Source: Bacteroidota bacterium (GTDB taxonomy: Bacteria; Bacteroidota; Bacteroidia; Bacteroidales; UBA4417). Taken from it: 64,000 bases of DNA. The first letter of the stretch is position 1; each line of letters opens with the position of its first letter. Both the position numbers and the translations under genes were made by a program. Positions 7,099 through 51,217 of this stretch are shown piece after piece. The stretch is taken from positions 17,277-81,276 of the forward strand of contig JAIFMH010000086.1 in NCBI GenBank assembly GCA_020048595.1. Direction: 5' to 3'. The notes under the pieces are model-generated. The model was given only the letters and a program-made list of their open reading frames with translations, was not told the origin of the DNA and ran no database searches.

Positions 7099-7128
7099 AA
7101 TAGATTACATTATTAAGGTTTTTACAAT

Positions 7129-12409: not shown

Positions 12410-13466
12410 CGATTTAATAACCTGAGTTCGATATAAGCAACCATTAAAATAAAGCGAGTTGTCCAAATTCTGGTTCAACATCATACTTTATTCTTGGTTT
12501 TTTAGGTAGAAACGAATAAGCGATAAGACCTGAAATCAAGTTGGAGAGAAAGTTTGAGAATGATCTGTGTCTTGAATGTTCTACTTGACAAATGTTTTTA
12601 AGCTCATCATTAATGGTTTCAATGATTGATCTTTTTCGAAGCAGTATTTTATCACTTATCGACATCAGACTATTCTTCATATTTCGTTTGAGGCCAGTAA
12701 TTAACTGAATACCATCAATAAACAGTTGTTCAAATAGCTTCTGGCCGATATATCCTTTATCAGCAAATAGTTTTCCAAAGATATTCTTGAGGAAATTACT
12801 ATCCTTCAATGGAGTTCTATCGTCGATGTGACCAGGAGTAATTACAAAATCAAGAATCTCTCCGGTATCACTAACAACAATATGAAGCTTAAAGCCGAAG
12901 AAGTATCCCATGGTTGATTTTCCTCGGGTAGCAATGCCTTCAAATACTTTGTGATTAAAGATTCGATTGTTTTTACATACCCGAATGGAGGTAGAATCAA
13001 TAAATGAAATACCAGAGCAAGAACCTAACCGCATTATTTTTAGAAAAATAACCATTGGAGGTAATGCTTTCTGCTGCAACTCAACAAACCGATTATATGA
13101 AACAGTCTTGGGGAATTCTGATTTAAGAACCTTCTGCACAAAATTGATATAGAAGTGCTTAAGATTCCTGTACCCACCAAGATGGAACGCGATCATGATG
13201 GTAATAACTTCAGAATCTGAAAGCTTACATGGTTTGTTTCTTTTCTTTTTAGTGGTTTCATCAGCCAATACATGTCCCTCCATTACTTGGTAATATTCTT
13301 TGCAAAATTCGTCAGTATAGAAGAATATTTCGGTAATTTTGTCTGTCATAGAAATAAGGTTTTAAAAGTGTATGTATTTAATAGTCAGATATTTAAATAT
13401 ACACAAAACCTTATTTCTTTCCAACTATTTTCTCCTTTTTTATTTCGAACTCAGGTTAATAAATCG
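12410..13466 (-). mobile_element. IS982-family insertion sequence (about 1057 bp), apparently intact
   Basis: Terminal inverted repeats match at 24 of 26 positions: left is CGATTTAATAACCTGAGTTCGATATA (12410-12435), and the reverse complement of the right end (13441-13466) is CGATTTATTAACCTGAGTTCGAAATA. They enclose one uninterrupted 301-aa transposase ORF. I could not see a target-site duplication. Confidence 0.8.
12444..13349 (-). CDS. IS982-family DDE transposase
   Basis: 301 aa. The N-terminus MTDKITEIFFYTDEFCKEY.., and later ..IDSTSIRVC.., ..GFKLHIVV.., ..LFADKGYIG.., are typical in size and motifs for IS982-type transposases. The ORF is bracketed by inverted repeats. Confidence 0.85.
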   Translation of the reverse strand: MTDKITEIFFYTDEFCKEYYQVMEGHVLADETTKKKRNKPCKLSDSEVITIMIAFHLGGYRNLKHFYINFVQKVLKSEFPKTVSYNRFVELQQKALPPMVIFLKIMRLGSCSGISFIDSTSIRVCKNNRIFNHKVFEGIATRGKSTMGYFFGFKLHIVVSDTGEILDFVITPGHIDDRTPLKDSNFLKNIFGKLFADKGYIGQKLFEQLFIDGIQLITGLKRNMKNSLMSISDKILLRKRSIIETINDELKNICQVEHSRHRSFSNFLSNLISGLIAYSFLPKKPRIKYDVEPEFGQLALF

Positions 13467-16605: not shown

Positions 16606-17589
16606 TTATTTGTCAGTCTCATCTGTGATGTAAAATTCATAGGTAGTCTCCCATGAAAATTCTTTACCCGGTTCAATGGCAATATTTATATAAGGTTCAG
16701 GGCATATTGTTTTATCATTGCACCAAAACACCAATTTAGAAATAGGTTGACTTCCCTTCATTCTCACTCCGGCACCTGTTTTATAGCAATCAATTTGAAT
16801 ATCATATCCATCCGGGTTGTTGTTTATTCCTTCGAGTGAACCACAATAAACGGACTCGCCTTTGGCTAAGGATCGCATAATTTTTAGCTTATTTTCATTT
16901 ACCTCTGCGATTTCTCCAATTCCTCTGCCTTTAGCAGAACAAACTATATTTTCCGGAAATGTCAATTCAAAGCCCTTACCAACAACCTGATGATCAAACA
17001 CAAAAAAGTTGTGGTTGAAAACATGAGTTTCAATGCGTTGCTTCCCTTTATTTTTAAGTCGGTATGAAATACGCATTTCAGGTTTACCTTCAACAAACTC
17101 AATGATTTTGGTATACTCATAAGGATAATCCTTGTGGTTTAAAATATGCTGAAACTGTATTTTTGCCGTCTCCCTTTCTATTTTCCATTTTCCCGGATCA
17201 ATGATTGGATAAGTAGAAAAAGCTTTGTATAGTGTATTCGAAAGTTTCGTTAAAGTTCCTACTCCAATTTTCACAAAAGAGCCTCCCGGTTTGGTTTCAT
17301 CATAATTCAGGGGTTCAAAAGAATCTACAGGCCCCATGATTGCATCGTGAAGGGTCGGCTTATATTTTTCGAACCATTTCCCAAAATAATTATGCCCATT
17401 GTACTCAAGACTCGAAATGATTCCTGCCCAATCGAACCGGGTGGCCCTGTAATAGCCATTATTTGTGTCGGGAAGATAAAGGCTGGCTTTAATTATTCCA
17501 TTTGAAATTTCGGTTTGCGGATTTTCTCCGATACGAAAACCAGTTAGAACAATATAAATAAACAGTATAAATACACCTTCCCTTTTCAT
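16606..17589 (-). CDS. Exported conserved hypothetical protein (fold/function unknown; all-beta sugar-binding fold is only a guess)
   Basis: 327 aa with a hydrophobic N-terminus. I recognise no catalytic family motif. It contains ..YYRATRFDWAGIISSLEYNGHNYFGKWF.. and is embedded between sulfatase genes in the same operon-like array. Confidence 0.5.
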   Translation of the reverse strand: MKREGVFILFIYIVLTGFRIGENPQTEISNGIIKASLYLPDTNNGYYRATRFDWAGIISSLEYNGHNYFGKWFEKYKPTLHDAIMGPVDSFEPLNYDETKPGGSFVKIGVGTLTKLSNTLYKAFSTYPIIDPGKWKIERETAKIQFQHILNHKDYPYEYTKIIEFVEGKPEMRISYRLKNKGKQRIETHVFNHNFFVFDHQVVGKGFELTFPENIVCSAKGRGIGEIAEVNENKLKIMRSLAKGESVYCGSLEGINNNPDGYDIQIDCYKTGAGVRMKGSQPISKLVFWCNDKTICPEPYINIAIEPGKEFSWETTYEFYITDETDK

Positions 17590-22142: not shown

Positions 22143-23480
22143 TTAAGGCCGGATAATAGTTCCGTCATTTTTTCGTACCTGAGTCCAGTTATTCAGTTGA
22201 ACATTGGGCAGCGGATATTTGGCAGCCAGTTTTTCATCCATATCAACACCCAATCCCGGCGCTTCGTTGACGTACATATACCCATTTTTTATAGTTGGCG
22301 TTCCCGGAAAAATTTCGCGCAGCTTTTCAGAAAAATTATGAGGTTCCTGAATTCCAAAATTCCAAACAGCCAGGTCGATATGTGCATTTGCAGCATGGCC
22401 AACCGGTGAAACATCTCCAGGTCCGTGCCAGGCGGTTCTGACATTAAAAGCCTCGCCAAAACGTGCAACTTTCATCGCCGGGGTTATGCCGCCAATCTGA
22501 GAAATATGTATGCGAATAAAATCAAACCACTGATCTTTCATCGGATCGACCCATTCATGAGGACTGTTAAATAACTCTCCCATAGCTATTGGCACAGAGG
22601 TATTCTCCCTCAATAATTTGAAATACCGGTTGTTTTCAGGTGAAAAAGGATCTTCAATAAAAAAAGGCCGATATTCTTCCAAAGATTTGATCAGATTAAT
22701 CGCTTCCATGGGTTGAAGTCGCTCATGTATATCATGCAATAGTTCAACCTTTTCACCACATTGTTTTCTTACTTTATCAAAAATCTCTCTGGTGCTTTTT
22801 GTATAGACATAAGGATCCATAAAACTATCGCGAGGCATACCGAATCCGGCATTCTTATAATCAGGATTATCTACCAGACCCGTAGTTCCATAACCTCCTA
22901 TCTGAATCCGAACGTGTCGGTACCCTTGTTCCATATAGCCTGCAACATCTTCAGCAACTTTTTCAGGTGAATTTCCACTCGCATGGGCATAGCAATCAAC
23001 TGCAAAACGGCATTTTCCTCCCAACAGCTGATAAACAGGCATGTTGGCCCGTTTTCCTTTGATGTCCCAAAGAGCCTGATCCAGGCCACTTAGCGCATTG
23101 TTTAAAACCGGACCGTTCCGCCAATACGAACTCTGATAGGTCGATTGCCAAAGGTCTTCGATAGTATCAACATCCTTCCCTACACAAAAGTCATTCAGAT
23201 ATTTGTCGATGGCGGCAACCACCACATGAGCCCTTTGCCTGAAGGTTGCACAGCCAATGCCATATAAACCAGGTTCACTGGTTTCAACTTTTACAATTAC
23301 CAACTCTATACCTTCAGGACAGGTTGAAATTGCTTTAACCTTTGTGATCTTTACCGGGGGAAGTCCTTTAAAAACTTTCTTATCATCTGCTGCAGCTGAA
23401 AAAGGATTCATCAATCCGGCTCCAATAGTAGCCAAACCAAGACTTTTCAGCGCTGTTCTGCGGTTTAGATTTGTATTCAT
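22143..23480 (-). CDS. Enolase-superfamily protein, D-mannonate dehydratase (ManD/RspA)-like, with Tat signal
   Basis: 445 aa. The N-terminus MNTNLNRRTALKSLGLATIGAGLMNPFSAAA has a twin-arginine motif, hydrophobic region and AxA site. The body resembles the ManD subgroup (..LWDIKGKRANMPVYQLLGG.., ..HDIHERL.., ..EDP..). Confidence 0.7.
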   Translation of the reverse strand: MNTNLNRRTALKSLGLATIGAGLMNPFSAAADDKKVFKGLPPVKITKVKAISTCPEGIELVIVKVETSEPGLYGIGCATFRQRAHVVVAAIDKYLNDFCVGKDVDTIEDLWQSTYQSSYWRNGPVLNNALSGLDQALWDIKGKRANMPVYQLLGGKCRFAVDCYAHASGNSPEKVAEDVAGYMEQGYRHVRIQIGGYGTTGLVDNPDYKNAGFGMPRDSFMDPYVYTKSTREIFDKVRKQCGEKVELLHDIHERLQPMEAINLIKSLEEYRPFFIEDPFSPENNRYFKLLRENTSVPIAMGELFNSPHEWVDPMKDQWFDFIRIHISQIGGITPAMKVARFGEAFNVRTAWHGPGDVSPVGHAANAHIDLAVWNFGIQEPHNFSEKLREIFPGTPTIKNGYMYVNEAPGLGVDMDEKLAAKYPLPNVQLNNWTQVRKNDGTIIRP

Positions 23481-23512
23481 AATTCTGAGAATTTTTAATT
23501 ATTAAATCTGAA

Positions 23513-24535
23513 TCAATTTAACACCCTTTTATAATTCTCCACGATCAAACCCGCATAAGGAGCAGCATATCCTTCCAATTTTTTCATATCAGCTTCTGAA
23601 AGTTTTTTCATGTTTCTCAGCACTTTTACATTTTCCTCCAATTCATGTGTAAACCTGCAGCCACTTACTAAAGATGAAACCGGAAGTGAATAAACATACT
23701 GATGAAGATTCGCGTATGTCAGTTCGGTAAGGCTAACAACATCCGGAATATCCTTAGTTTCGATATTTTTCGGTGTTGTATCTATCCTTCCTCCCATCAT
23801 GCTACCGCCAGCCATGGTCTTCATGGCCAGAATGCCATATTTTTTTTCGAGCAACACAGGAAGAACATGATGTTGGAAGGATTCAAACGACGGATCGCAA
23901 ACATTTAAGGGCATTTGGCAGGTATCCAGTTCAATGCCCAATTCATCGAGCTTTTTCAGAAAATGCAGATGAGTTTTAGGATTTTGGTGGCCGGTAAAAC
24001 CAATATAGCGTGCCTTACCTTTTTGTTTAGCTTCGAGAAAAGCTTCCAAAACACCTGCTTTTAACCTGTTATCAACATCTTCCGGAGTATTTAAGGCATG
24101 AATCTGCCACAAATCGATGTAATCTGTTTTTAATGCTTTTAACGATTCATCCAACATTTGTCGTACTTCCGCACCTGTTTTGCCTGGCGCCTTTGTCATC
24201 AGGAAAATCTGGTCACGGTATTTAGGTGTTAGAAATTTACCCATGTACTCTTCGGCACGACCATTGACATATTTTCGGGCATTGTCGAAAAACCGGACTC
24301 CCAACTCCATAGATCGTTCAACCATTCTCTCAGCATCAGCCGGATTATCGATGAACCCTAAATGGTAGCCACCAAGGCAAAAAGCAGTTACTTTCTGACC
24401 ATCCCGGGTCAACTGACGTTGAGGTAAAATTTCGCCCCACTTGTCGTTCACAGGAATTGCCGAAGCCCAGTCAGCAATCAAACTTAAGGCCGCAACAGTC
24501 CCAACTTTTTTGATGAATTTTCTTCTGTTTTCCAT
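23513..24535 (-). CDS. Aldo/keto reductase with Tat signal
   Basis: 340 aa. The N-terminus is MENRRKFIKKVGTVAALSLIADWASA (Tat-like). AKR motifs: ..GVRFFDNARKYVNGRAEEYMGKFL.., ..DYIDLWQIHA.., ..RYIGFTGH... Confidence 0.75.
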   Translation of the reverse strand: MENRRKFIKKVGTVAALSLIADWASAIPVNDKWGEILPQRQLTRDGQKVTAFCLGGYHLGFIDNPADAERMVERSMELGVRFFDNARKYVNGRAEEYMGKFLTPKYRDQIFLMTKAPGKTGAEVRQMLDESLKALKTDYIDLWQIHALNTPEDVDNRLKAGVLEAFLEAKQKGKARYIGFTGHQNPKTHLHFLKKLDELGIELDTCQMPLNVCDPSFESFQHHVLPVLLEKKYGILAMKTMAGGSMMGGRIDTTPKNIETKDIPDVVSLTELTYANLHQYVYSLPVSSLVSGCRFTHELEENVKVLRNMKKLSEADMKKLEGYAAPYAGLIVENYKRVLN

Positions 24536-26332: not shown

Positions 26333-27565
26333 TCAGTTAAATGTTTTGTTGTATAAATTCTCATCCTTGTCGAAACAGCCTGACATATATACAATTGCCT
26401 TTGTATTTTCGATGGTTACAGGGGAACCGGAAATATAGTTTCTCATGCGGCTGCCCCACACCGAAACGGTTAATTTTTTGTCTCCCTGAACCAGTATAAA
26501 ATCCTGCGATTGGTTTTCAGGAACAGTTGTCAGTGCGCCGTTTCCGCCTGAAAATGCTTCAACATTGCTTAGCGAAGTATGTCCCTGTCCTTCGATGATG
26601 ATGGGGTGAATATTTTCCACTTTCTCGCCGGTATTGGCTATGATTGAACCTTGCGCGATTTGCCAGTTGCGGTTTTTTGTATTACTCCCTCGTTTTAAAA
26701 TGCCAACTGCAACACAGTCGAAGTTAAAATTGGTTAATTGCCCGTAAGATTCGCTATCGAGTAAAATTCCACCATACGTTCCGAAGGTAAAAAGGTCGAT
26801 AATCTGGGCATTATCAGTATGGTTTATGGTGTAGGCATATGTTTTTTTAGCAATGACAGCATCCACAACTGCACGACTGTACTGACCTCCAATGTATCGC
26901 TGTCCGGCAGGGTTGACATGGCAATGCAAAATGCGGGGAACATCGTAGACATAATCCATCCGGATAAATTCACCGCTAAGCGGATAGCCATAGCAATGTT
27001 CGAAAGTCATTAATTCGCAGGCATTTTCGCGACTGGCATTAAAATCGAAAGCTAAATATTCGCCATAAAAAGTGAGGCAGGAAAGAAACACGCCCTGTGC
27101 CCTGCTGGTTTGTGAAACCTGAATGGTTGCCTTGTATGGGATAATTGCAGCCGGGTCTTTGATGGTTTGCTCAGGATACCAAAACTGAATGCCTTTAATT
27201 TGAGTCCCGGTTTCAACAGTTATAAAAGCATTTTCTCTATCCGTAATGGCGAACACACTGCCAACAGGTTGTTTTTTTGTCGCGTGGGTAGTTCCACGGG
27301 GAGTTGGACCGTGTACGCCGATCAGGGAAACATTTTTTTTCAGGATAATTCCGCCATTAATGGGATAGGGTTCTTCGGAGGGTTCAACAAATAATGCAGC
27401 GCCTCTTACTGTGGCCCAATCAATGGCTTTTTGCAGGTTTATTTTATTTAAAGCAGCGCTGTTCCCGGGCTTTACATCAAATTTTTGGATGCTTGTTAAT
27501 TCTGAAGCTCTTAACTGGTTTATGCCAATAACTAACATCAGCAATAGGATTAAGTTCGTTTTCAT
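26333..27565 (-). CDS. Exported right-handed beta-helix protein (Pectate_lyase_3-like); candidate glycanase or lyase
   Basis: 410 aa with a signal peptide. The N-terminal region, ..FDVKPGNSAALNKINLQKAIDWATVRGAALFVEPSEEPYPINGGIILKKNVSLIG.., resembles the start of pectate-lyase-superfamily/GH28/GH55-like beta-helix proteins. The assignment is by eye only. Confidence 0.45.
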   Translation of the reverse strand: MKTNLILLLMLVIGINQLRASELTSIQKFDVKPGNSAALNKINLQKAIDWATVRGAALFVEPSEEPYPINGGIILKKNVSLIGVHGPTPRGTTHATKKQPVGSVFAITDRENAFITVETGTQIKGIQFWYPEQTIKDPAAIIPYKATIQVSQTSRAQGVFLSCLTFYGEYLAFDFNASRENACELMTFEHCYGYPLSGEFIRMDYVYDVPRILHCHVNPAGQRYIGGQYSRAVVDAVIAKKTYAYTINHTDNAQIIDLFTFGTYGGILLDSESYGQLTNFNFDCVAVGILKRGSNTKNRNWQIAQGSIIANTGEKVENIHPIIIEGQGHTSLSNVEAFSGGNGALTTVPENQSQDFILVQGDKKLTVSVWGSRMRNYISGSPVTIENTKAIVYMSGCFDKDENLYNKTFN

Positions 27566-28707: not shown

Positions 28708-29799
28708 TTATCTTTCTAATTTGACTTGTTTCCCGGTTTTGCTGCTTTTGCGGGCAGCTTCGAGAATTTCGACAACGGTCAGGTTCGTTTCAAGCGCCGA
28801 TAAATCAGTTTTTGAAACAATAACATCTCCTTTTATTGCAGCCGAAAAAAAGGCAAAACCATCCTTAAAGGGGGATTTTGTCCATGGTATTTTCTCAACA
28901 CTTTCAACCGATTTTTCATTTAACCTGAACCGGATTGTTTGAGCATCGTCGCTGAGTACATATCCGGTATTGCCGTAGATGTGCATGTCTTTACGATTGA
29001 AGGGCCAATTCCATGAAGCATTGATGACTCCTTCCATGTTTGGATACGAAAGCACGATGGTCGCATCATCATCAACTTTTGGATAGACACCAGGTTTGTA
29101 TTGTTTAAGTCTGGCATAAACCGATAATGGTTTTTCACCCTTCATGATCCAGGTTATCAGATCAGCTCCATAACAACCAAAATCGGTTACAGCCCCACCT
29201 CCATTTAAAACAGGATCGGTGAGCCATTCTAAAAATTCGCTGTTTACTTTTATTTCTTTTGGCCCTTTGTGCCCATCGTAAACAATTACTTTTCTCAATT
29301 CACCCAATTCACCCTTATTAACCATCTCCTGACTTTTATAATTCGATGGATACCAGGTCGTTTCATAATTGGTAAGTGTAAGTATATGGTGCTTTTTTGC
29401 AAGTTTTGCCATGACATTGGCATGTTTGACGCTCACAGCCAAAGGTTTTTCAACCATAACGTGAATTCCGCGGGGAGCACATGCCTGCACAACTTTCAGG
29501 TGGTCGAAAATGGAAGTGAAAGTGATTACCCCGGCGGGTTTAGTTTTGTCCAGCATTTCATCCAAAGACTGATAAATCAGGTTTTGATCGATTCCAAACT
29601 GTCTGGAGTACCGGCCTGAAAGGACAGTATCACTTTCTGCAATTCCCACAATCTGAATATCATTTCTGCTCAAATTTCTTAGCAAGGGAAGCACATGCGA
29701 ATGCGATAATCCGGCAATTCCAATTCTGACTGGTTGTTGAGCTTCAGAGGCACTAAAAATTATGCTGAAACAGATAATTAAAAACCATGCAACTTTCAT
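28708..29799 (-). CDS. Exported Gfo/Idh/MocA-family NAD(P)-dependent oxidoreductase
   Basis: 363 aa with a Sec-type signal (MKVAWFLIICFSIIFSASEAQQ). A Rossmann N-terminus follows (VRIGIAGLSHSHV..IVGIAESD), then ..VMVEKPLA.. as is typical of the family. Confidence 0.75.
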   Translation of the reverse strand: MKVAWFLIICFSIIFSASEAQQPVRIGIAGLSHSHVLPLLRNLSRNDIQIVGIAESDTVLSGRYSRQFGIDQNLIYQSLDEMLDKTKPAGVITFTSIFDHLKVVQACAPRGIHVMVEKPLAVSVKHANVMAKLAKKHHILTLTNYETTWYPSNYKSQEMVNKGELGELRKVIVYDGHKGPKEIKVNSEFLEWLTDPVLNGGGAVTDFGCYGADLITWIMKGEKPLSVYARLKQYKPGVYPKVDDDATIVLSYPNMEGVINASWNWPFNRKDMHIYGNTGYVLSDDAQTIRFRLNEKSVESVEKIPWTKSPFKDGFAFFSAAIKGDVIVSKTDLSALETNLTVVEILEAARKSSKTGKQVKLER

Positions 29800-34741: not shown

Positions 34742-36061
34742 TTAAAAGGTTTGTTGAGCATAGTTTCCCATTTCCTTTTCCCAATCCTTTAGCAGGGTTT
34801 TGAACTTTTTTATCATAACCGGATTTTCATCCTTTAAATTTGTTGTTTCACCAAGATCTTTAGCCAAATCAAAAAGATATTCCTTTTCTTTTATTTTCAG
34901 GTATTTCCAATTTTCCATGCGCACTACCCACTGATTCTGGAACCTCCAAAATAAGGGGCGCTTTTTCATTTCTTTTTCAGAAAAAAGAAGTTTCGAAAAA
35001 TCCTCTCCATCGAACCTGACCTTGTTAGAAATTCCGGCTACGTTAAGTAATGTAGGTAAAACATCCATACTTATAACTGGGTCATCAGCAATTTTACCGG
35101 GTTTAATTTTTCCGGGATACCAGGCAATTGCAGGAACCCTGTGTCCACCTTCCCAAAGTGAACTTTTAAATCCGTTAAGCGCACCGTTGTTTCCCATGCT
35201 TGTGGCTCCATTGTCGGAGCAAAAAAACACAAATGTATTTTTGTCCAGGTTCAATTCCTTCAATTTCTCAAGCACACGACCAATATTTTCGTCCATAATT
35301 TCTACCATTTCTTTGTAGGCCTGTTTTTTGTCGGAACGGGAACCAAGCATTTCGAAATTTAATCCAGGCAATCGATCCGCTTTGTCATTCCGCCCCTGAT
35401 AAGGAAAATGTGGAGCTTCATGGGGTAAATACAGTAAAAATGGTTTGTTTTTATTGGATTCAATAAACTTCAGTGCCTGGTTCGTAATTAAATCGGTTAC
35501 ATAACCTTCATCGTAGCACGTATCGGTATTGTGCCACCAATCATAAATGCCGATTCCATCTCGATGAGAGATATAATCCACATTGCCACTTACATAGCCA
35601 TAAAATTCATTGAATCCATGATGTGTCGGATTAAATTCAGGTTGGTAGCCCAAATGCCATTTTCCAAAAATACCAGTCTGATAACCTGATTTTTGGAAAA
35701 TTTCAGCCATTGTTACTTCAGAATCAGCAATACCATAGATCCTTTTATCCATTTGGGCATTAATTACCCCTTCCAATCCGACGCGCTGCTGGTAGTTACC
35801 AGTCAGTAATGAGGCCCTGGTTGGAGTGCAGACGGCTCCGTTGGAGTGGTAGTCGGTAAACTTTATTCCATCGGCTGCCATTTTATCCAAAACCGGTGTT
35901 TTAATGGATTTACTTCCATAACAGCCAATGTCTCCATACCCCATGTCATCGGCCATAATCAGAATAATATTTGGTTTTTCGGCAAGTTCTTTTGCTGCAG
36001 CGGCAGAAGTAAAACAACTCAAGGCAATTGAAACGGACAAAACATTAACCGGACTCTTCAT
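34742..36061 (-). CDS. Formylglycine-dependent sulfatase
   Basis: The ORF track gives 34742..36172, but that start overlaps the upstream gene by 56 nt. The ATG at 36061 (MKSPVNVLSVSIALSCFTSAAAA) gives a normal signal peptide. Motifs: PNIILIMADDMGYGD, GAVCTPTRASLLTGNY, CSDNGA. Confidence 0.88.
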   Translation of the reverse strand: MKSPVNVLSVSIALSCFTSAAAAKELAEKPNIILIMADDMGYGDIGCYGSKSIKTPVLDKMAADGIKFTDYHSNGAVCTPTRASLLTGNYQQRVGLEGVINAQMDKRIYGIADSEVTMAEIFQKSGYQTGIFGKWHLGYQPEFNPTHHGFNEFYGYVSGNVDYISHRDGIGIYDWWHNTDTCYDEGYVTDLITNQALKFIESNKNKPFLLYLPHEAPHFPYQGRNDKADRLPGLNFEMLGSRSDKKQAYKEMVEIMDENIGRVLEKLKELNLDKNTFVFFCSDNGATSMGNNGALNGFKSSLWEGGHRVPAIAWYPGKIKPGKIADDPVISMDVLPTLLNVAGISNKVRFDGEDFSKLLFSEKEMKKRPLFWRFQNQWVVRMENWKYLKIKEKEYLFDLAKDLGETTNLKDENPVMIKKFKTLLKDWEKEMGNYAQQTF

Positions 36062-36116
36062 TTCTTTTTTGTTTGTTAGTATTGGTTGTAAACTGCTTAC
36101 AAGCAAATAGAATATT

Positions 36117-37670
36117 CTAATTCTGCTTATTAGCTTTCTTTTCCCAATGAAACGAATCCCCTTCAACAACAAGCTTCAACTCATTTTTCGGAGTAACTTC
36201 GGGTGCAAATACCTTTGGGGCCGATTTTTGCATGTTCTGCATAATTGGACGGTATTTTTCATCCGCTGCCAAATTGTACCATTCGTTAGGATCTTCCTTC
36301 ACATTGTACAACTCTTCACCTCCATCGAAATAACGGATATACCGCCAATTTGTATTTATTACTGCATAGCTTCCTTTTTCATTACTCGGAAGAAAAACGT
36401 TTCTGTCCATCGATCTGTTTGGTTTTTTCAAGGAAGATACCAGGGATACGCCCTCAAGGTTTTTAACCTTCGGAAGATGGCAGAGTTCAATAAAAGTCGG
36501 GTACATATCGATCAGACTAACCGATGTATTTACTTTTTTATTTTTTGGAATCCCTTTCCCTGCCCAGATAAACGGAACATGCGATGTACGTTGCCAGAGC
36601 GTATGTTTGCCCCAGTGCATTTTTTCACCATGATGAAATCCCTGGTCACTCCAAAAAACAATGATTGTATTGTTTTTTTCAGGACTCGCATCCAGGGCAT
36701 CCAGAACGCGACCAAGCATAGCATCAGCGAATGAAACGGAAGCAAGGTATCCGTGGATTGCATCCTTTAAAACGCCCAATTCTTCCAGTTCCCTGTGTTG
36801 TTTCGACCGGTTCATCATATTTTTACGGATTTTTTCCGGAAGATCATCCAGGTCATCAGCCTTAAAAGGAGGAAGTTGGATTGAATCGCGGTTATACATG
36901 TCAAAATACTTTTGGGGAGCATAATTCGGATAGTGGGGTGAGTACAATCCCAGGGCAAGGAAGAACGGTTTGTCATGCTTTTGCTGAAGGATACTACAAG
37001 CCCAATTCGTACGTATGGCATCCACCATATCATCTTCCTTTTCATTGGCAATTGGCCCCCATTCAAGATGCAATGCCGAGCCACCTTCTCTGCCGGTTTT
37101 GGTGTAATAAGGACTATAGGGATATGGAACCGGAAGCGGGTTGTCATTCATGTGGTAAGGTCCTATTTCCCATCCTGAATTTTTGACTTCCTGACTTCGT
37201 GCAAAATATTTATCCCAGCCACGAAGATCAACGAACCCACCCCGGTGATGATAGATTTTACCGGAACCATACGTACTGTATCCTCCTTGTTTAAAGGCCA
37301 TTTGCATGGTTACCAGATCCGGATGATCGTATTGAAAAGGATCTTCTCCATAACAGCCTGTAGTTGATGCATTTAATCCGGTCATGATCGCAGTACGGGA
37401 TGGCGCGCAGAAAACGCCGGGCGACTGGGCAGATGTAAAAACTACCCCTAGTTTTGCCAAACGATCCATATTCGGCGTTTTGGCCTGATTGTAACCCAGG
37501 GGAGTTACCCAGTCGTTAAGGTCATCCATGGCCAAAAAGATCACATTGGGCTGGCTTCCTGATTGGTTGCTTTTTTCACCTGTGCCCTCATTTGCCTGTA
37601 AAATATTTCCTGTCTGTCCCACAATGAAAATCATGCCCGGGATCAAAAAAAATTGATGTATTTGTTTCAT
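36117..37670 (-). CDS. Formylglycine-dependent sulfatase (iduronate-2-sulfatase-like N-terminus)
   Basis: 517 aa. Motifs: PNVIFLAMDDLNDW, GVFCAPSRTAIMTGL, WSDQGFHHGE. Confidence 0.88.
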   Translation of the reverse strand: MKQIHQFFLIPGMIFIVGQTGNILQANEGTGEKSNQSGSQPNVIFLAMDDLNDWVTPLGYNQAKTPNMDRLAKLGVVFTSAQSPGVFCAPSRTAIMTGLNASTTGCYGEDPFQYDHPDLVTMQMAFKQGGYSTYGSGKIYHHRGGFVDLRGWDKYFARSQEVKNSGWEIGPYHMNDNPLPVPYPYSPYYTKTGREGGSALHLEWGPIANEKEDDMVDAIRTNWACSILQQKHDKPFFLALGLYSPHYPNYAPQKYFDMYNRDSIQLPPFKADDLDDLPEKIRKNMMNRSKQHRELEELGVLKDAIHGYLASVSFADAMLGRVLDALDASPEKNNTIIVFWSDQGFHHGEKMHWGKHTLWQRTSHVPFIWAGKGIPKNKKVNTSVSLIDMYPTFIELCHLPKVKNLEGVSLVSSLKKPNRSMDRNVFLPSNEKGSYAVINTNWRYIRYFDGGEELYNVKEDPNEWYNLAADEKYRPIMQNMQKSAPKVFAPEVTPKNELKLVVEGDSFHWEKKANKQN

Positions 37671-37688
37671 TTCATTAATATTATTTAC

Positions 37689-38735
37689 TCAATTTACAAT
37701 TTCAGCATTTTCAATAAACTCCTTATCAGGTTGAAAATTTATCTTTTCTGCCAGCTTGGTATTCAACCAGATTTTCGATTTCATATTCCTTGTCACAGGA
37801 ATATCAGAAGGATTTTCTCCCTTTAATATTTTTTTAGCGGTTGTGGCAGCCCAGATTCCCTGCTCCTCTGCAACCTTTGTAATTCCAAATACAGCATAGG
37901 ACATCATAAAATCTTCACATGTAACTACAGGAACAAGGATGTTTTTAGAAATAAAATTTTCGGCTTCAACATTATTCCAACCTTTTATAGCTCCATTAGT
38001 GGAAATATAGATTATATCATATGTTTTATTTCCTTCTTCAAAATGTGTTTTCCAGCTCTCAAAATCATCAACCAATTCATGTCTGACTGATAATCCTACG
38101 CGATTATAAAGTGAATCTAGAATTAACTTTTCCTTTCGCGATGTGGTGGTGTTCTCGGTAAGCACCAATAATTTTTTCATCGCCGGATAAAAAGATTTCA
38201 TCGTAATTAAAGTTTCGGCCAAAGGAAGTATTTCGAGCATACCCGTCAGCTTAACAGCCTTGAGGTCGTATTCCGTATCCGACCAGTTTACCCCACAAAA
38301 TACAACCGGAATATCGATTCCGGAGAAGTAGGGTTGAATGAGATATTTCACCGCATTATCGTCAGAAACAATTACTACATCAGGTTCAATAATCCTTATT
38401 GAGTCGAATAATTGAGCGGCTTTTTTTTCAACGTAATCTTGCGAAGGATTTCTTTTAGTATCCATTATATAGGTCACCAGCTGAAAGCTATCGGCTGGGA
38501 ATGCCTTCCAAATGGCATCCATGATTTGATCACTTGAGGGATGTCCTTTGTGGTATGAATTTATATAAATTACTTTCGGCTTCTCGGTTTTTTGCTGAAT
38601 GCAACCTTGAAATAGCAGGCTCAAAAGAACGATGAGTAATCCACTTTTAAAATGTGGCTTACGGGAATTGGTTATTTTTTTCATGGATAGTGCTTTTTTG
38701 ATTGCTGTTGTTTTGTTCCTCAATGAAAATAGCAT
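37689..38735 (-). CDS. Orphan periplasmic-binding-protein-fold lipoprotein (ABC_sub_bind / PF04392-like)
   Basis: 348 aa; an alternative start at 38684 gives MKKITN... Lipobox LLFQGC. Pattern: KVIYINSYHKGHPSSDQ.., ..DVVIVSDDNAV.., ..IPVVFCGVNWSD..LTGM... No ABC permease or ATPase gene occurs anywhere in the window. Confidence 0.5.
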   Translation of the reverse strand: MLFSLRNKTTAIKKALSMKKITNSRKPHFKSGLLIVLLSLLFQGCIQQKTEKPKVIYINSYHKGHPSSDQIMDAIWKAFPADSFQLVTYIMDTKRNPSQDYVEKKAAQLFDSIRIIEPDVVIVSDDNAVKYLIQPYFSGIDIPVVFCGVNWSDTEYDLKAVKLTGMLEILPLAETLITMKSFYPAMKKLLVLTENTTTSRKEKLILDSLYNRVGLSVRHELVDDFESWKTHFEEGNKTYDIIYISTNGAIKGWNNVEAENFISKNILVPVVTCEDFMMSYAVFGITKVAEEQGIWAATTAKKILKGENPSDIPVTRNMKSKIWLNTKLAEKINFQPDKEFIENAEIVN

Positions 38736-44335: not shown

Positions 44336-45631
44336 TTATTTTCTTTCCGGCATCTTTTTCGAAAAAGGAATTTCGCCACGCAGCATTTTACCTGCCATGC
44401 CCGTTAACCACAAATAATGATCGGATGGAACCTCTTTTTCAATAGGAACAAAAACACTTTTTCCAACCGGAACGTTATGCGCACATTTCATGATGGCAGT
44501 ACCTTCATCAATTTCATCGAACATGGCAACATAGATCATTTCAGCTCCACTCTCAAGTGCGCCGGCAATTTGCTTCCAGTAAAATTCACCTTTGTTCCTT
44601 GGAATTTTGTCTGATTTGTCATCTTTCATGTTGTGCCAGGAGAAGCCGGGATAAACAGTTGGGGCATAGGATTTCCCATTTTCTTTGCACCATTTCACAT
44701 CATCAATAATATTCTCCTGACGGTAAGCTTCGTAATTTCCCTCGTTATAACGCCCGACCAACCAGGGATGAACAACGTCTGCCTGTTTGATGGCATCATG
44801 CAAACGTGGGTCGCCTTTTGTATCCGATCCAAGGGTTCTCCAGCGCGACGGGATTCCCAAATGAATGGAACAACCGCCATATATAGGATCGTTTTTGAAA
44901 AAATCCATGATATCAAATATTTCAGGGATGTGACCAGATTCCCTTGTTCCGGCGCTTATTCCCCAAAAAGCAACTAAAGGTTTATTATTATGAAAAAGGT
45001 AGGTTGTTTTCTTCCCCTGGTTTGTGAGTTTCAGGTCGTCAACCAGATGTTTCCAATCCGCTATCACCAGTTTGTATTTGCTGTCATCCATACTGCCAAT
45101 ATCGTACATCAAACAAATAGCAATTCCATATTTAGTAGCAGCTTTTATAGCCGAAGCCATGACTTTGTCGTTATGATTTAGTCTTTCCTTGCTTGTAAGA
45201 ACAGAGAAGAACCTTTGCATAAACACGCCATCAATCCCGTACTGTTTCATCCATTTAAAATGCAAATCAACGGTACTTTCATCGTAAGAGCTAAAAACAT
45301 AGGCAGGAGAACCATCCGCGAACTTAAACGGTGTTTTGTATTTCACCTTGTACTCATCCATTTCAGGCCAGTTATCGAATTTACAACTTCCGTCTTCGAA
45401 TTTGTTATTTAAAGCGTAGTGGGTCCAACCCCTTTGGGCGCCATCGCCCTCACAATTAAACCAGCCCTGATAACCAGCCATAACAAGCCCTTTATAACTC
45501 ATGTATTTACTTTTTGGAGCATGTTTAGTTTGGGCTGAAATATGAATACTGAATAAGAGCATAAATAGTCCTGTTAAAAACAGTTTGTCCTTCATGGTGT
45601 ATGTTTTGAGAATAAAAGTACCTGTGGGCAT
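44336..45631 (-). CDS. Exported TIM-barrel glycosidase candidate, GH99/GH71-clan-like (family uncertain)
   Basis: 431 aa; the likely true start is the ATG at 45595 (MKDKLFLTGLFMLLFS..). Motifs: VMAGYQGWF, HFKWMKQYGIDGVFMQRF, and the C-terminal VAMFDEIDEGTAI, reminiscent of the NEWHEGT block of GH99-type barrels. Confidence 0.4.
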   Translation of the reverse strand: MPTGTFILKTYTMKDKLFLTGLFMLLFSIHISAQTKHAPKSKYMSYKGLVMAGYQGWFNCEGDGAQRGWTHYALNNKFEDGSCKFDNWPEMDEYKVKYKTPFKFADGSPAYVFSSYDESTVDLHFKWMKQYGIDGVFMQRFFSVLTSKERLNHNDKVMASAIKAATKYGIAICLMYDIGSMDDSKYKLVIADWKHLVDDLKLTNQGKKTTYLFHNNKPLVAFWGISAGTRESGHIPEIFDIMDFFKNDPIYGGCSIHLGIPSRWRTLGSDTKGDPRLHDAIKQADVVHPWLVGRYNEGNYEAYRQENIIDDVKWCKENGKSYAPTVYPGFSWHNMKDDKSDKIPRNKGEFYWKQIAGALESGAEMIYVAMFDEIDEGTAIMKCAHNVPVGKSVFVPIEKEVPSDHYLWLTGMAGKMLRGEIPFSKKMPERK

Positions 45632-45680: not shown

Positions 45681-46787
45681 TTACGATTTTAAACCGGCAT
45701 TACAATTTATACGCAAATATTCAAAGCTTTTTAACAGCTCCGATTGCTGAAGTTCAATATCAAAATTTTTCTGGGTTATTCCTGCAGGAGGATTTTTGAT
45801 TTCCTGTGGCTTTCCATTTTTTGCAAGATTTAGAAAAACTATAATGCCAGCTGCAGAGAGATTTGGGAAACCTTTCCAGAATTCGGGCTTTAAAAAAGGA
45901 GTCGGTCGTGCCGAGTTTGAAATGGTCTCCACATGAAGTGGGACTCCCGGGCATAATTCAGCCATCGTTTTTGAATAAAGTGGGTAGTCCAATATTCCTT
46001 CGCCGATAGCCATTCCCTGAAATGTGGCACCTTCCTGGGTTTCCCAAATGGCAACATCGCGCACGCTGGTACAAACTATGGTTGACCCCAATATCTTTAA
46101 TGCCTCCATAGGATCTTCCATTGCCCAGAGTGCATTTGCCGGGTCGAATAGTGAACCGCAAATGTCAGTTCCGGTTTCATTAATAAGAGCCAACAATTCT
46201 TCTGAACGAAGGTCGCCGGCATGGTTTTCAAAAGCAAATTTAACCCCGGCATCTAAAGCTGCCTGGCGAAGCGACTTCATTACTTTTATCACAGCTTCCA
46301 TGTGTGCTTCAATTCCGCCATCCATATAGCGGTCATCAATACCACCGATACGTACACCAACTATTGGAGAACCAACAGCTGCTGCAACGCGAATCCCCTC
46401 ACTCAATAAAGTCCCGGCATTTCCATAATTTGAAGAGAAACTTTTAGATTTTTCGCTGATGCTTCCGGCTCCGATATAAATACTGATATCGTTATCTCTG
46501 GCCATTTTACTTAAAAGGGAAAGATATTCAGGCTCTAGACTATCAAGCGGTTGAAGGGTATTCAGTAAAACTGAATCGAGCTTTTGTTTTATGGCATATT
46601 CTGTGAGTTGTTGAGCATTAAAATTCATCCCCCGAAGAGAATGATTACACAATCCCAACGGAATTCTTGCGGATTCGGATGGCTTATTTTTCAAAAATTC
46701 AATTGAAGCAAAAGCGGGAAATGATTGCATTGCTAACGCACCCAATCCGGCTATTTTTGTAAAATCACGTCGTTTCATAGGGAACAT
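45681..46787 (-). CDS. Xylose-isomerase-like TIM-barrel protein (sugar phosphate isomerase/epimerase family) with Tat signal
   Basis: 368 aa. The N-terminus (MFP)MKRRDFTKIAGLGALAMQSFPAFA is Tat-like. The body has ..VKFAFENHAGD.. and barrel-type periodicity typical of AP_endonuc_2 / xylose isomerase-like proteins. Confidence 0.6.
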   Translation of the reverse strand: MFPMKRRDFTKIAGLGALAMQSFPAFASIEFLKNKPSESARIPLGLCNHSLRGMNFNAQQLTEYAIKQKLDSVLLNTLQPLDSLEPEYLSLLSKMARDNDISIYIGAGSISEKSKSFSSNYGNAGTLLSEGIRVAAAVGSPIVGVRIGGIDDRYMDGGIEAHMEAVIKVMKSLRQAALDAGVKFAFENHAGDLRSEELLALINETGTDICGSLFDPANALWAMEDPMEALKILGSTIVCTSVRDVAIWETQEGATFQGMAIGEGILDYPLYSKTMAELCPGVPLHVETISNSARPTPFLKPEFWKGFPNLSAAGIIVFLNLAKNGKPQEIKNPPAGITQKNFDIELQQSELLKSFEYLRINCNAGLKS

Positions 46788-48780: not shown

Positions 48781-49878
48781 TTATACAGGAGGATAGCACA
48801 ATAACACTTTTGCAGGTTTCGTCGTTTTCCAGGTGATTGTTTCAATGGCAGCAGGGAAAAATATTTCATCGCCTTGAGAGAAGCTGTAATTTTGGCCTCC
48901 GCATGTAATATCAACTTCCCCGGAATATATCACTCCCACAAAGAAAGACCCATTGCCTTTTAAAATAAATTCACCATTCAGGTTCAGTTCGTTTAAGCCA
49001 AAGCAGTCGGTGTGAAGTTTATTGAAAATGGTTTTAAGCGTATATGCATCTGTCGATTCGAGTGTTTTTGGTGTAATTTTCCAACGTTCGGTGGCTTCTT
49101 CAAACGAACATCCATCGTAATGAAAGCATTTTAACATGTTTTCCTCACCAACGCCCTGATGAATTAAATCATCGCTGATAGCCAGACCTCCGGGAGTAAT
49201 TTTTTCTACGCGCATGGTATAGTCGGTAGGCTCCTGAACTTCCATTAGAAAACAACCTTGTCCAATAGCATGAGGTACACCACCATAGATAATAAATGCA
49301 TCGCCAGGTTTCACCTCAAAACGGTGCAATGAATTTAGCATACCATGAATATCTTGTTTCTTAAAAAGTTCATGCCATTTTTCAGGAGTTACACCTTCTT
49401 TGAAACCCAGAAAAATTGAACTCTTTACGCCATCTATTTCCCGACCACCTAAAATATACCACGATTCTGTTTTTCCAAATGCAGAATTGAGCATGGTATG
49501 AGCATATTCTTTATTGGGATGTACTTGTATGGTAAGGCGTTCTTTGGAATCGAGCATTTTAATAAGTACACCCGTTGTGCCATATTTTTTCGCAAGCTTT
49601 TCGCCCAAAAAAAGATTCAAATCAGAATTAATCAACTCATTAAGTGAAACTACGCCATCAGGTGATGACAAGAGTGATAGTCCCTCTTCAATCGGACGAT
49701 TTTTGCCTCGAGCCGAAATAGTGGACATAATCCATTCTTCGGGTAAACTTCCATCATCTTCCGTTGTGCCAAACTTCCATTTATCAATTAATGCACCACC
49801 AGTATAAGTTCTCCACACGCGGTTTGGTAATTGTTTTAGTGGTGTCCTGGCAAATTTTGCTAATTCGTTTTTATCCAT
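48781..49878 (-). CDS. manA: Type I mannose-6-phosphate isomerase (cupin)
   Basis: 365 aa with no signal peptide. Motifs: LTIQVHPNKEYA, GKTESWYILGG and GVPHAIG, as in Bacillus-type class I PMI. Confidence 0.7.
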   Translation of the reverse strand: MDKNELAKFARTPLKQLPNRVWRTYTGGALIDKWKFGTTEDDGSLPEEWIMSTISARGKNRPIEEGLSLLSSPDGVVSLNELINSDLNLFLGEKLAKKYGTTGVLIKMLDSKERLTIQVHPNKEYAHTMLNSAFGKTESWYILGGREIDGVKSSIFLGFKEGVTPEKWHELFKKQDIHGMLNSLHRFEVKPGDAFIIYGGVPHAIGQGCFLMEVQEPTDYTMRVEKITPGGLAISDDLIHQGVGEENMLKCFHYDGCSFEEATERWKITPKTLESTDAYTLKTIFNKLHTDCFGLNELNLNGEFILKGNGSFFVGVIYSGEVDITCGGQNYSFSQGDEIFFPAAIETITWKTTKPAKVLLCYPPV

Positions 49879-51217
49879 GTTTTGTAATTATTTCATTGTT
49901 TTTAGGGGCAAAAATAAATACCGAAAGAACTGACAACGGGATTAATAGCCCCCCCATGATAAAGAATGGGATCCAGTTTCCACCTCGTGTAAGCATAGGC
50001 ACCAGATAAGTTGACAGAATAATTCCAAAAATTGCAGATGCACCACCCAATCCGGCTAAAGACCCTACAGTTTTACCAGAATGAAAGTCGCTTGGTAAAG
50101 TTTGAATATTGGTTATGGCAAATTGAAATCCTCCAAGAATAAACATTAACATGATAGATGCAGAAAGACCAGTGAGGGCAAAAGCAGCACCAATCATACC
50201 AGGTAAAATTATTGCACAGCCAATACCAATCGTTATCTTTCTGGCTTTTATTGCATTACAGCCTTTACTAATAAGCCTTCCAGCCCACCAGCCACCAAGT
50301 AAACTTCCAAAAGCAGCACCCACAAATGGTATCCAAGCTACAGCCGCCACTTCCTTAAGATCCAATTTGTACACTTCCTGCAAATAAATGGGTAGCCAGG
50401 TCATAAACATCCACCATATTGGATCGAGGAAAAAGCGACTTGCAATAACCGAATAACTATGCTTGTCTTTAAGTAATTGTTTAATGTTTAATGTCTTCGA
50501 ATCTATTTTATCAACTTCTCCCTGTCCGTTTAGAATGTAATCTTTTTCCTTTTGAGTGATCCAGGGATGGGTTTTGGGTCCGGATTTATTTATAATATAC
50601 CATAGTGGTATCCAAGCCAAACATATTAACCCTAAAACAACAAAAGTCTGACGCCATCCCATGGACAAAAAAAGTAATGGAATAATAATTGGCACCAATA
50701 TATTTCCAACTGAAGAGGCCGCACCAAAAAAACCCTGAGCAATTGCTCTTTCTTTAATTGGAAACCACTCAGCATTCGACTTTGTGGTTCCTGGCCATGG
50801 TCCTGCTTCCCCAAGTCCGAGTAAAACCCTGAAAAATGCAAGTTGCCGAACACCACCAACAAGGGAAGTCAGTGAAATTGCACCTCCCCAAATGAGAGCT
50901 GAAATACTAAATCCGTTGCGTGTTCCAACTTTATCGTACATTACGCCTGATAGTAACTGACTTACGCCATAAGCAAGCATAAAAGCGATATTTATCCAGG
51001 CAAATACTTCTTTTGATTTTTGTTGTCTTTCCTCCGGAGTCATTTCATCACTCACAATATGCAGCTCAGATGCAATACCTGGTTGCACAACCATGCCCGT
51101 AGTTTTATCTTTTCCGTCCTGCCACATGTAGTTTAATGTGCCCCTGTCAAGTATATTAATTACTGTAACAAGTACTATCAAACTTAAAATTACCCAACGC
51201 ATTCCCCTTATTTTCAT
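49871..51217 (-). CDS. MFS transporter, ACS/hexuronate (ExuT)-like
   Basis: 448 aa with about 12 predicted hydrophobic spans. The N-terminus, RWVILSLIVLVTVINILDRGTLNYM, is typical of ExuT-like permeases. It overlaps the downstream manA-like gene by 8 nt. Confidence 0.65.
   Translation of the reverse strand: MKIRGMRWVILSLIVLVTVINILDRGTLNYMWQDGKDKTTGMVVQPGIASELHIVSDEMTPEERQQKSKEVFAWINIAFMLAYGVSQLLSGVMYDKVGTRNGFSISALIWGGAISLTSLVGGVRQLAFFRVLLGLGEAGPWPGTTKSNAEWFPIKERAIAQGFFGAASSVGNILVPIIIPLLFLSMGWRQTFVVLGLICLAWIPLWYIINKSGPKTHPWITQKEKDYILNGQGEVDKIDSKTLNIKQLLKDKHSYSVIASRFFLDPIWWMFMTWLPIYLQEVYKLDLKEVAAVAWIPFVGAAFGSLLGGWWAGRLISKGCNAIKARKITIGIGCAIILPGMIGAAFALTGLSASIMLMFILGGFQFAITNIQTLPSDFHSGKTVGSLAGLGGASAIFGIILSTYLVPMLTRGGNWIPFFIMGGLLIPLSVLSVFIFAPKNNEIITKHG

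Follow-up and report, generated by a model that had tools for sequence, protein, structure and literature searches.

What are two enzymes from families known in the cytoplasm doing behind export signals in a locus for glycan breakdown? The question is raised by two neighbouring genes on the minus strand of a 64,000-nucleotide stretch of contig JAIFMH010000086.1 from a Bacteroidota bacterium, the whole of which is called the window here. The open reading frame (ORF) listing places the genes at positions 22143-23480 and 23513-24535, separated by a gap of 32 bp. The former encodes a 445 amino acid member of the enolase superfamily that resembles mannonate dehydratases of the ManD subgroup, and the latter encodes a 340 amino acid protein of the aldo/keto reductase (AKR) family. 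In textbooks, both AKRs and the acid-sugar dehydratases of the enolase superfamily are enzymes of the cytoplasm. A first-pass annotation of the window had described the pair as exported along the twin-arginine translocation (Tat) route, within a polysaccharide utilisation locus (PUL) flanked by sulfatases, and had remarked that both families are otherwise known as cytoplasmic. The gene pair is present as described, the remark on the families is supported, and the setting is borne out by the 17 sulfatase-domain ORFs, two SusC/D pairs and several glycoside hydrolase (GH) genes found in the window. We propose that the two proteins, after folding in the cytoplasm and Tat export to the periplasm, may form part of an extracytoplasmic oxidative sugar route. 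Judging from comparative sequence analysis, we give this reading a little less than an even chance of being correct.

The leader of the ManD-like protein reads MNTNLNRRTALKSLGLATIGAGLMNPFSAAA and is followed by DD beyond the predicted cleavage site, while that of the AKR reads MENRRKFIKKVGTVAALSLIADWASA and is followed by IP. Both ATG codons are the first start codons past an in-frame stop and lie downstream of an A/T-rich stretch, and the next methionine of the ManD-like protein (M24) falls within the hydrophobic region. The twin arginines (RR) are found at the same position in 113 of the 120 closest ManD-like homologues (71-100% identity), where the inspected exceptions are N-terminally shorter, and in 119 of 120 AKR homologues (78-97% identity). 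Even AKR homologues at 33-46% identity retain an RRxF[LI]K start. The consensus around these residues is [N/S]-R-R-x-[A/F/V/L]-[L/I]-[K/R], and RR is invariant in every full-length homologue with a complete N-terminus while the remainder of the leader drifts. A leaderless later start was considered and rejected, because the ATG codons are the first after in-frame stops and the leaders are kept as protein across phyla. Thus, the leaders do not appear to be annotation artefacts, which the first-pass annotation had named as a possible pitfall.

The physical character of the leaders is also typical of Tat substrates. Their motifs, NRRTALK and NRRKFIK, follow the general Tat pattern S/T-R-R-x-F-L-K. 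Their maximum hydropathy over 12 amino acids is 1.5-1.7, compared with a mean of 2.29 for 14 Sec-type leaders encoded in the same window. Each includes a hydrophobic region (Gly/Ala-rich in the ManD-like leader), a helix breaker and an A-x-A site. From these conserved, Tat-like features we conclude that Tat export is very probable for both proteins, in agreement with the earlier proposal.

The catalytic residues of both proteins are intact, and therefore the enzymes look active. The ManD-like protein carries the Pfam domains PF02746 (MR_MLE_N, 1.5e-21) and PF13378 (MR_MLE_C, 2.1e-47), and its ManD profile match begins at residue 44, which leaves an N-terminal extension of 43 amino acids. Its best matches among solved structures are 3t6c, 3tw9 and 4ihc (E of about 1e-139; 469 bits against 3t6c), and it is 42% identical to Escherichia coli RspA. 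When the window protein was aligned with RspA and eight exported relatives, the Mg ligands D250, E276 and E302 were invariant in all 10 sequences, and the histidine of the D-x-H motif (H252) was kept in nine. Also present in the ManD-like protein are R191 at strand 2, the loop residue Y197, and H352. Rakus and colleagues are said to have assigned in 2007 the Arg/Tyr pair of ManD as the general base and the D-x-H histidine as the general acid. The protein scores 401.4 bits against the NCBIfam ManD equivalog NF043051, whose cut-off is 550, and 396.4 bits against the galactonate dehydratase family model NF011654, whose cut-off is 430. The former score, being below the equivalog cut-off, does not assign a substrate to the ManD-like protein, in agreement with the first-pass annotation.

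The AKR matches PF00248 (1.6e-32) from residue 53 onwards, and its tetrad D84, Y89, K115 and H146 aligns with that of solved AKRs. The protein is remote from every solved AKR, wherein the best match reaches 81 bits over 160 residues, and its best NCBIfam match scores 50.6 bits against a cut-off of 448. Membership of a named AKR family requires more than 40% identity to a member, and with a best solved chain at 81 bits the protein falls short of such an assignment. Several of the next-best structure matches are L-galactose dehydrogenases.

The exported dehydratase is widespread. A genome scan using one genome per species yielded 80 loci at 62-97% identity to the dehydratase, and these are distributed among Bacteroidota, Planctomycetota and Latescibacterota. 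The Bacteroidota hosts are Marinilabiliales-like or Draconibacterium, Saprospiraceae, Cyclobacteriaceae, Cytophagales, Sphingobacteriaceae and Chitinophagaceae. There are 118 enolase-superfamily ORFs in these loci, and an RR leader is present in 113 of the 114 that are full-length. Many loci carry two to eight paralogues in a row beside SusC/D, with eight in the locus L080 (related loci are designated by L numbers). Arrays of three to eight diverged paralogues, often beside SusC/D, occur in L080 (996-12843), L023, L044, L046, L048, L060, L068 and L076. All array paralogues carry RR leaders except for one apparently start-truncated copy (L080:10001-11239), and they fall into at least four length and sequence types of about 413, 414-421, 425-495 and 445-470 amino acids.

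In a neighbour-joining tree, the window protein belongs to a block of approximately 85 sequences that all bear leaders apart from the same truncated copy. Other exported paralogue types group with leaderless representatives that resemble galactonate dehydratase, which indicates that leaders occur in several lineages of the superfamily. Leader-bearing and leaderless relatives are likewise mixed among representatives at 50% identity, although this is only a rough picture since many of these matches are fragments.

Flanking ORFs of the 80 loci were clustered and recurrent clusters were annotated. The most frequent partner, found within 10 kb in 16 of 80 loci and usually adjoining, is an unnamed secreted protein of about 320 amino acids with a mutarotase-like fold. 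SusC/D genes follow in 16-19 loci, then xylose-isomerase-like TIM barrels with Tat leaders (11), GFO/IDH/MocA oxidoreductases with Tat leaders (10), major facilitator superfamily (MFS) transporters of the D-galactonate subfamily (9), pyrroloquinoline quinone (PQQ) quinohaemoprotein dehydrogenases (8), Tat-leader UxuA proteins that pass the mannonate dehydratase subfamily cut-off (6), 2-keto-3-deoxy-galactonokinase or DgoK (6), and 2-keto-3-deoxy-6-phosphogluconate (KDPG) aldolase (2). Secreted lactonase-like proteins (7-bladed propeller, SMP-30 and metallo-beta-lactamase folds) and 3-keto-disaccharide hydrolase are recurrent as well. Such a context fits acid-sugar chemistry in the periplasm before import, as the first-pass annotation had suggested.

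The gene order in L039 is PQQ dehydrogenase, MFS transporter, exported dehydratase, SusC, SusD, exported dehydratase, DgoK and KDPG aldolase. An oxidative pathway of the De Ley-Doudoroff type has the same set of genes, except that here the dehydratase and the oxidising enzymes are predicted to be extracytoplasmic. The five pathway genes, for a dehydrogenase, lactonase, dehydratase, kinase and aldolase, are together in no single related locus. L061 has the last four with no detected dehydrogenase, L039 is without a lactonase, and L145 is without the kinase and aldolase. A general association with sulfatases is not seen. Sulfatases are nearby in only six of 80 loci, and thus a general link was rejected in favour of a lineage-specific one.

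A UxuA-type mannonate dehydratase with a twin-arginine leader (MKNNRREFIRK) is encoded at L065:11345-12496 on the plus strand, and it scores 256 bits against an NCBIfam subfamily cut-off of 191. In L059 and L063-L066, the gene for the Tat-leader UxuA immediately follows that of the exported ManD-like protein, and in L052 it is found elsewhere in the locus. On the basis of its leader, the UxuA type appears to be a second, unrelated dehydratase family that is exported.

The family of the most frequent partner is represented in the window by 16606-17589, which lies in the same gene string as the pair, and homologues also occur in the metagenome loci L104, L105 and L123. Thousands of homologues exist, but the protein has no Pfam family. 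Its AlphaFold2 model (pLDDT 89.7) finds mutarotase-like proteins as best Foldseek matches (E 4.5e-11, TM about 0.5). A profile comparison with E. coli GalM using hhalign gave no sequence similarity (probability 0.4%). Kinship at the level of sequence was therefore rejected and only the match in fold stands. The family has invariant His and Glu residues (H66, H193 and E298), which are candidate counterparts of the His/His/Glu catalytic set of galactose mutarotases. A partner of mutarotase type, as modelled, would fit a pathway that starts from a free reducing sugar.

The association between the AKR and the dehydratase is far more restricted. By tblastn, an AKR is located within 10 kb of the dehydratase in only seven of the 80 genome loci, all in a clade of at least 79% identity, and so a universal AKR-ManD pair was rejected and the pairing is not general. 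The ManD-like gene lies directly downstream of the AKR in six of the seven closest genome loci, whereas in L004 one ORF, for an unnamed protein of about 410 amino acids, intervenes. Close adjacency of the two genes is, by these comparisons, restricted to one Marinilabiliales-like lineage with sulfatase and mannosidase loci. A metagenome scan centred on the AKR provided approximately 21 informative loci with close AKRs. The ManD-like gene is directly downstream in eight of these. In a further three (L086 and L124 included) the distance is greater by one ORF or about 1.3 kb, and in two the gene is nearby on the opposite strand. Four of the positive loci (L087, L091, L104 and L105) carry a ManD subclade at 66% identity.

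The unnamed protein of about 410 amino acids has a weak match to MGH1-like glycoside hydrolases, carries an RR leader in some copies, and is found in 10 loci but not in the window. Examples are L004:4999-6219, L086:7032-8249, L124:530-1732 and L105:4284-5522. In L004 and L086 its ORF separates the AKR from the ManD-like gene. In L124 it runs over the end of the AKR match, and otherwise it is a neighbour of the AKR. Thus, of L086 and L124, only the former has the ORF (7032-8249) entirely between the two genes. In L005, a second AKR copy (4849-5223; 77% identity over the 125 residues present) directly follows the ManD-like gene to give the order AKR, ManD, AKR.

More distant relatives give an indication of what the AKR might do. 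In L139, L145 and L147, an AKR at 34% identity has two exported proteins as neighbours, one of the enolase superfamily at 25% identity and one of the Amidohydro_2 family. L145 and L147 additionally encode an SMP-30 lactonase, at a position that the shorter L139 contig does not reach. In L123 and L126, the AKR is accompanied by an exported Amidohydro_2 protein and sulfatases, and L123 also has the mutarotase-fold protein. The Amidohydro_2 family includes sugar lactonases. Oxidative pathways run in the order dehydrogenase, lactonase, dehydratase, and for this reason we favour the AKR as an aldose 1-dehydrogenase that acts upstream of the dehydratase rather than as a later reductase. The first-pass annotation had suggested a reductive role for the AKR, which is the less likely of the two given that distant Tat-leader AKRs keep company with exported Amidohydro_2 or SMP-30 lactonase-type proteins and enolase-superfamily proteins, and given the structure matches to L-galactose dehydrogenases. 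From its sequence and its neighbours, the AKR probably acts as an aldose 1-dehydrogenase.

The glycan itself can be approached through the glycosidases of the window, which are of the GH92, GH38, GH99-like, GH115-like and GH88 types. GH92 and GH38 are alpha-mannosidase families. Orthologues of the GH92, GH99-like, GH115-like and sulfatase genes travel with the pair in other genomes, where their order is shuffled. A sulfated mannan or glucuronomannan is a reasonable substrate for the locus, and the conversion of D-mannose to D-mannonate and on to 2-keto-3-deoxygluconate (KDG) would be a reasonable guess, but only a guess, at the chemistry of the pair. The literature passage tied to this glycan context mentions no dehydratase or AKR.

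Perhaps, then, the imported glycan releases an aldose, most likely in this window mannose from a sulfated polymer of the alpha-mannan type, and oxidation of this sugar at C1 gives a lactone. The oxidation would probably be carried out by the AKR, exported with NAD(P) already bound, and the mutarotase-fold protein may help at this step, to which a secreted GFO/IDH/MocA enzyme may also contribute. The lactone would open to the aldonate, which the ManD-like enzyme might dehydrate with Mg2+, using Arg191/Tyr197 as the base and His252 as the acid, to produce a 2-keto-3-deoxy-aldonate. This product would be KDG if the substrate is D-mannonate or D-gluconate. An MFS transporter of the galactonate type could import the 2-keto-3-deoxy-aldonate, and the last steps would fall to a cytoplasmic kinase and a KDPG-type aldolase whose genes lie outside the window. 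The cofactor of the AKR might be re-oxidised by a ping-pong reaction with a second substrate, as in glucose-fructose oxidoreductase (GFOR), or by another partner. Export, substrate, direction of the AKR reaction and cofactor re-oxidation are the parts of this route that we infer.

Some features do not sit well with the oxidative route and weigh against it. No NAD(P) pool is known in the periplasm, which makes the turnover of an AKR there hard to explain, and consequently an exported AKR must hold its cofactor and have it recycled. There are no lactonase, kinase or aldolase genes in the window, and there is a gene for a phosphomannose isomerase-like (PMI-like) protein, which suggests that mannose is also used by the ordinary phosphorylative route. 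In approximately one third of the 80 genome loci the dehydratase is found among housekeeping genes with no sugar context. The Tyr of the ManD-like protein is at +6 from the Arg rather than at +12 as in RspA, and this spacing is common to the closest solved relatives 3t6c, 3tw9 and 4ihc, which are described as low-efficiency dehydratases only. Moreover, the AKR occurs without a ManD-like gene in about eight of the informative metagenome loci and is alone in Pleomorphovibrio marinus (L081). Finally, the Tat-signal hidden Markov model (HMM) TIGR01409 gives 14.2 bits for the ManD-like leader and 15.7 for the AKR leader against a cut-off of 16.7, and PF10518 gives 13.5 bits for the ManD-like leader against a cut-off of 22.7 and no match to the AKR leader. 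Neither profile matched a Sec-type control leader. Because they fall short of the cut-offs, we regard these matches as supportive but not decisive.

Such scores are in keeping with another reading, in which the extensions do not drive export at all and the proteins are cytoplasmic or membrane-tethered, functioning as an ordinary mannonate or gluconate dehydratase and a reductase for hexuronate catabolism. Some relatives in the ManD subgroup have an N-terminal extension without RR, and Mg2+ enzymes have no obvious need for Tat. However, the invariance of RR across phyla in leaders that otherwise drift, the hydrophobic regions, helix breakers and A-x-A sites, a hydropathy that is Tat-typical and clearly under that of the Sec leaders of the window, and the Tat or Sec leaders on neighbouring genes in many loci make this reading very improbable. 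A more serious alternative, which we nevertheless consider unlikely, is that both proteins are exported but belong to uncoupled modules placed side by side by shuffling of PULs in one lineage. Detoxification of reactive carbonyls, or activity on a sugar unrelated to the dehydratase, are examples of what the AKR could then do. The 73 dehydratase loci that lack an AKR within 10 kb, the loci in which the AKR lacks a dehydratase, and the heavily shuffled gene order around the pair are all compatible with such a history. It is hard to see by chance, however, how the adjacency would recur with the other ManD subclade at 66% identity and again in L139, L145 and L147, where the AKR and the enolase-superfamily protein have diverged to 34% and 25% identity.

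The first-pass annotation had proposed chemistry on acidic residues that are still attached to oligosaccharides, wherein a terminal uronate or aldonate is dehydrated or epimerised to a keto or aldehyde product, which is subsequently reduced by the AKR. In a variant, the AKR reduces free glucuronate to L-gulonate, which is a step of the fungal and animal reductive uronate route. GH115-like and GH88 enzymes do imply substrates that contain glucuronate, the two to eight diverged exported paralogues beside SusC/D resemble a diversification against varied glycans, and in the fungal galacturonate pathway, too, an AKR acts before an enolase-superfamily dehydratase. Against this, the characterised acid-sugar dehydratases of the superfamily all act, as far as is known, on free monosaccharide acids in a closed active site, and the recurrent lactonase-type, mutarotase-fold and aldose dehydrogenase partners act on free reducing sugars. 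A stoichiometric reductase would, in addition, need a supply of NADPH in the periplasm. The evidence assembled here provides no support for action on oligosaccharide termini, and we judge both forms of this proposal to be improbable.

Returning to the oxidative route, the distribution of the exported enzymes allows a broader proposal, which we find somewhat doubtful but worth stating. PUL-bearing Bacteroidota, Planctomycetota and their relatives may possess a hitherto overlooked periplasmic sugar-acid pathway in which arrays of up to eight Tat-exported dehydratases, together with exported UxuA-type enzymes, AKR, GFO and PQQ oxidoreductases, lactonases and mutarotase-fold proteins, make 2-keto-3-deoxy acids from sugars of the glycan, with only these acids being imported. 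The nicotinamide of the AKR would then be permanently bound.

The pair, its leaders and the candidate partners encoded in the window are listed in the table.

Table. Positions of the gene pair, its leaders and candidate partners in the window
Feature	Position	Strand	Basis
ManD-like enolase-superfamily protein, predicted periplasmic acid-sugar dehydratase	22143..23480	-	Pfam MR_MLE_N and MR_MLE_C
Twin-arginine leader of the ManD-like protein, residues 1-31, predicted cleavage after AAA and before D	23388..23480	-	Motif N-R-R-T-A-L-K
AKR family protein, 340 amino acids, predicted periplasmic NAD(P)-dependent oxidoreductase	23513..24535	-	PF00248
Twin-arginine leader of the AKR, residues 1-26, predicted cleavage after ASA and before I	24458..24535	-	Motif N-R-R-K-F-I-K-K
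Secreted protein of an unnamed family, galactose-mutarotase-like fold, 327 amino acids	16606..17589	-	AlphaFold2 and Foldseek
GFO/IDH/MocA oxidoreductase with Sec-type leader, candidate periplasmic sugar dehydrogenase (presumed member)	28708..29799	-	Pfam GFO_IDH_MocA
Xylose-isomerase-like TIM-barrel protein, twin-arginine leader MFPMKRRDFTKIAGLGALAM (presumed member)	45681..46787	-	Pfam AP_endonuc_2
MFS transporter, D-galactonate (sugar-acid) transporter subfamily, candidate product importer (putative)	49871..51217	-	NCBIfam TIGR00893

Besides the PMI-like protein, the same window thus encodes a Tat-leader TIM barrel, a Sec-leader GFO/IDH/MocA enzyme and a sugar-acid MFS transporter. The GFO/IDH/MocA protein has weak NCBIfam matches that include D-xylose 1-dehydrogenase and glycoside 3-dehydrogenase, and its orthologues adjoin the pair in L005 and L086. 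An orthologue of the TIM barrel is present in L004. The transporter matches its model at 1.8e-56, which is under the cut-off, and it is 31-34% identical to MFS genes beside exported dehydratases elsewhere, part of which are in loci with DgoK. There are no tat genes in the window. A scan for sigma-70 promoters and terminators around the pair gave no enrichment over shuffled sequences, with the caveat that a sigma-70 model is not appropriate for Bacteroidota.

Several other genes on the minus strand of the window were recorded. The 431 amino acid protein of 44336-45631 has only a weak GH99 match (33.8 bits), and its orthologues accompany the AKR-ManD pair in L002, L003 and L004. A relationship is possible with the GH99-like domain, an endo-alpha-1,3-mannanase, that was reported for sulfated mannan from diatoms (PMC13063451). 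A secreted 410 amino acid protein without a Pfam family (26333-27565) has orthologues at 88-90% identity with the pair in L003 and L088. The SusC/D-type locus also includes a gene (37689-38735) with a substrate-binding-protein domain of ATP-binding cassette transporters (PF04392), which is unusual for a PUL in Bacteroidota.

Two of the sulfatase ORFs (34742-36172 and 36117-37670) overlap by 56 bp, and the downstream ORF is called from TTG. Its sulfatase domain begins at residue 67 and is preceded by an internal Met and a signal-like stretch, which indicates that the true start is probably later. A 747 amino acid sulfatase (54390-56633) has a weak match (E 0.0018) to the C-terminal sorting domain of type IX secretion and hence may be surface-exposed or secreted. 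An insertion sequence (IS)-type DDE transposase gene (12444-13349) separates the SusC/D block from the string of sulfatase genes, so that the locus may be split. A gene for a TraG/TraD-type coupling protein of type IV secretion (62950-63897) is located at the window edge, and thus the glycan locus may adjoin, or lie on, a conjugative element.

In the current model of PULs, the periplasm holds only glycosidases, lyases, sulfatases and a few NAD-dependent oxidoreductases. If the proposed route is real, a conserved and diversified set of exported dehydratases and dehydrogenases would insert a further stage of metabolism after the glycan is depolymerised and before import, and the molecule that passes the inner membrane would be a different one. 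The cell could gain electrons on the periplasmic side, and sugars could be converted to forms that competitors cannot take up. The ManD-subgroup proteins described as having low or no activity would gain a concrete new place in which to search for substrates, and the question would arise of how a nicotinamide-dependent AKR turns over outside the cytoplasm.

We found no characterised member of the exported ManD-like clade in the literature, and our search on Tat-exported enzymes of the enolase superfamily, AKR or MocA families, whose coverage is incomplete, found no description of them. The enzyme families and the proposed chemistry are already known. What appears to be new is the compartment, the diversification into arrays of exported paralogues and the association with PULs. 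The window dehydratase resembles the ManD subgroup (3t6c, 3tw9, 4ihc, 2qjj and E. coli RspA) in its two-domain fold, its three carboxylate Mg ligands, the acid of the D-x-H motif, an Arg that ends barrel strand 2, and the presence of a Tyr in a loop. It differs in the conserved 31 amino acid Tat leader and linker, the PUL setting with exported partners, the scores below both the ManD and galactonate dehydratase cut-offs of NCBIfam, and the +6 rather than +12 position of the Tyr. The L-galactose dehydrogenases of AKR type that are among the best matches of the window AKR (8scc, 7ezi and 7smi) oxidise an aldose at C1 to a lactone. However, they are cytosolic plant enzymes that match the window AKR at only about 38-55 bits, from which no common specificity can be drawn.

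GFOR-type enzymes, such as that of Zymomonas, are Tat-exported with tightly bound NADP, and they serve as our working model of a possible turnover mechanism for an exported AKR. The window AKR has an AKR TIM barrel in place of the GFO/IDH/MocA Rossmann fold, and tight cofactor binding and a ping-pong reaction are only proposed for it. The aldose-aldose oxidoreductase of Caulobacter, which is homologous to GFOR, converts xylose to xylonate and xylitol (PMC4628093).

Two known types of pathway are also close parallels. The three enzyme types of the non-phosphorylative L-fucose, L-galactose and L-rhamnose pathways, which in the known oxidative examples are cytoplasmic and act in the order dehydrogenase, lactonase, dehydratase, also adjoin in L139, L145 and L147 and partly in L123 and L126. 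Unlike in those pathways, the AKR, enolase-superfamily and Amidohydro_2 proteins have twin-arginine leaders, the SMP-30 lactonase has a Sec or lipoprotein-type leader, and the role of dehydrogenase falls to an AKR that is remote from all solved AKRs. The De Ley-Doudoroff or dgo operon (DgoT, DgoD, DgoK and DgoA) shares with the related loci a galactonate-type MFS transporter, an enolase-superfamily dehydratase, 2-keto-3-deoxy-galactonokinase and a KDPG-type aldolase. In contrast to the dgo operon, the kinase and aldolase are not in the window, and periplasmic enzymes of the PQQ, GFO or AKR types are the proposed oxidants. The dehydratase here also has an export signal, so that the molecule imported would be the 2-keto-3-deoxy acid and not the aldonate.

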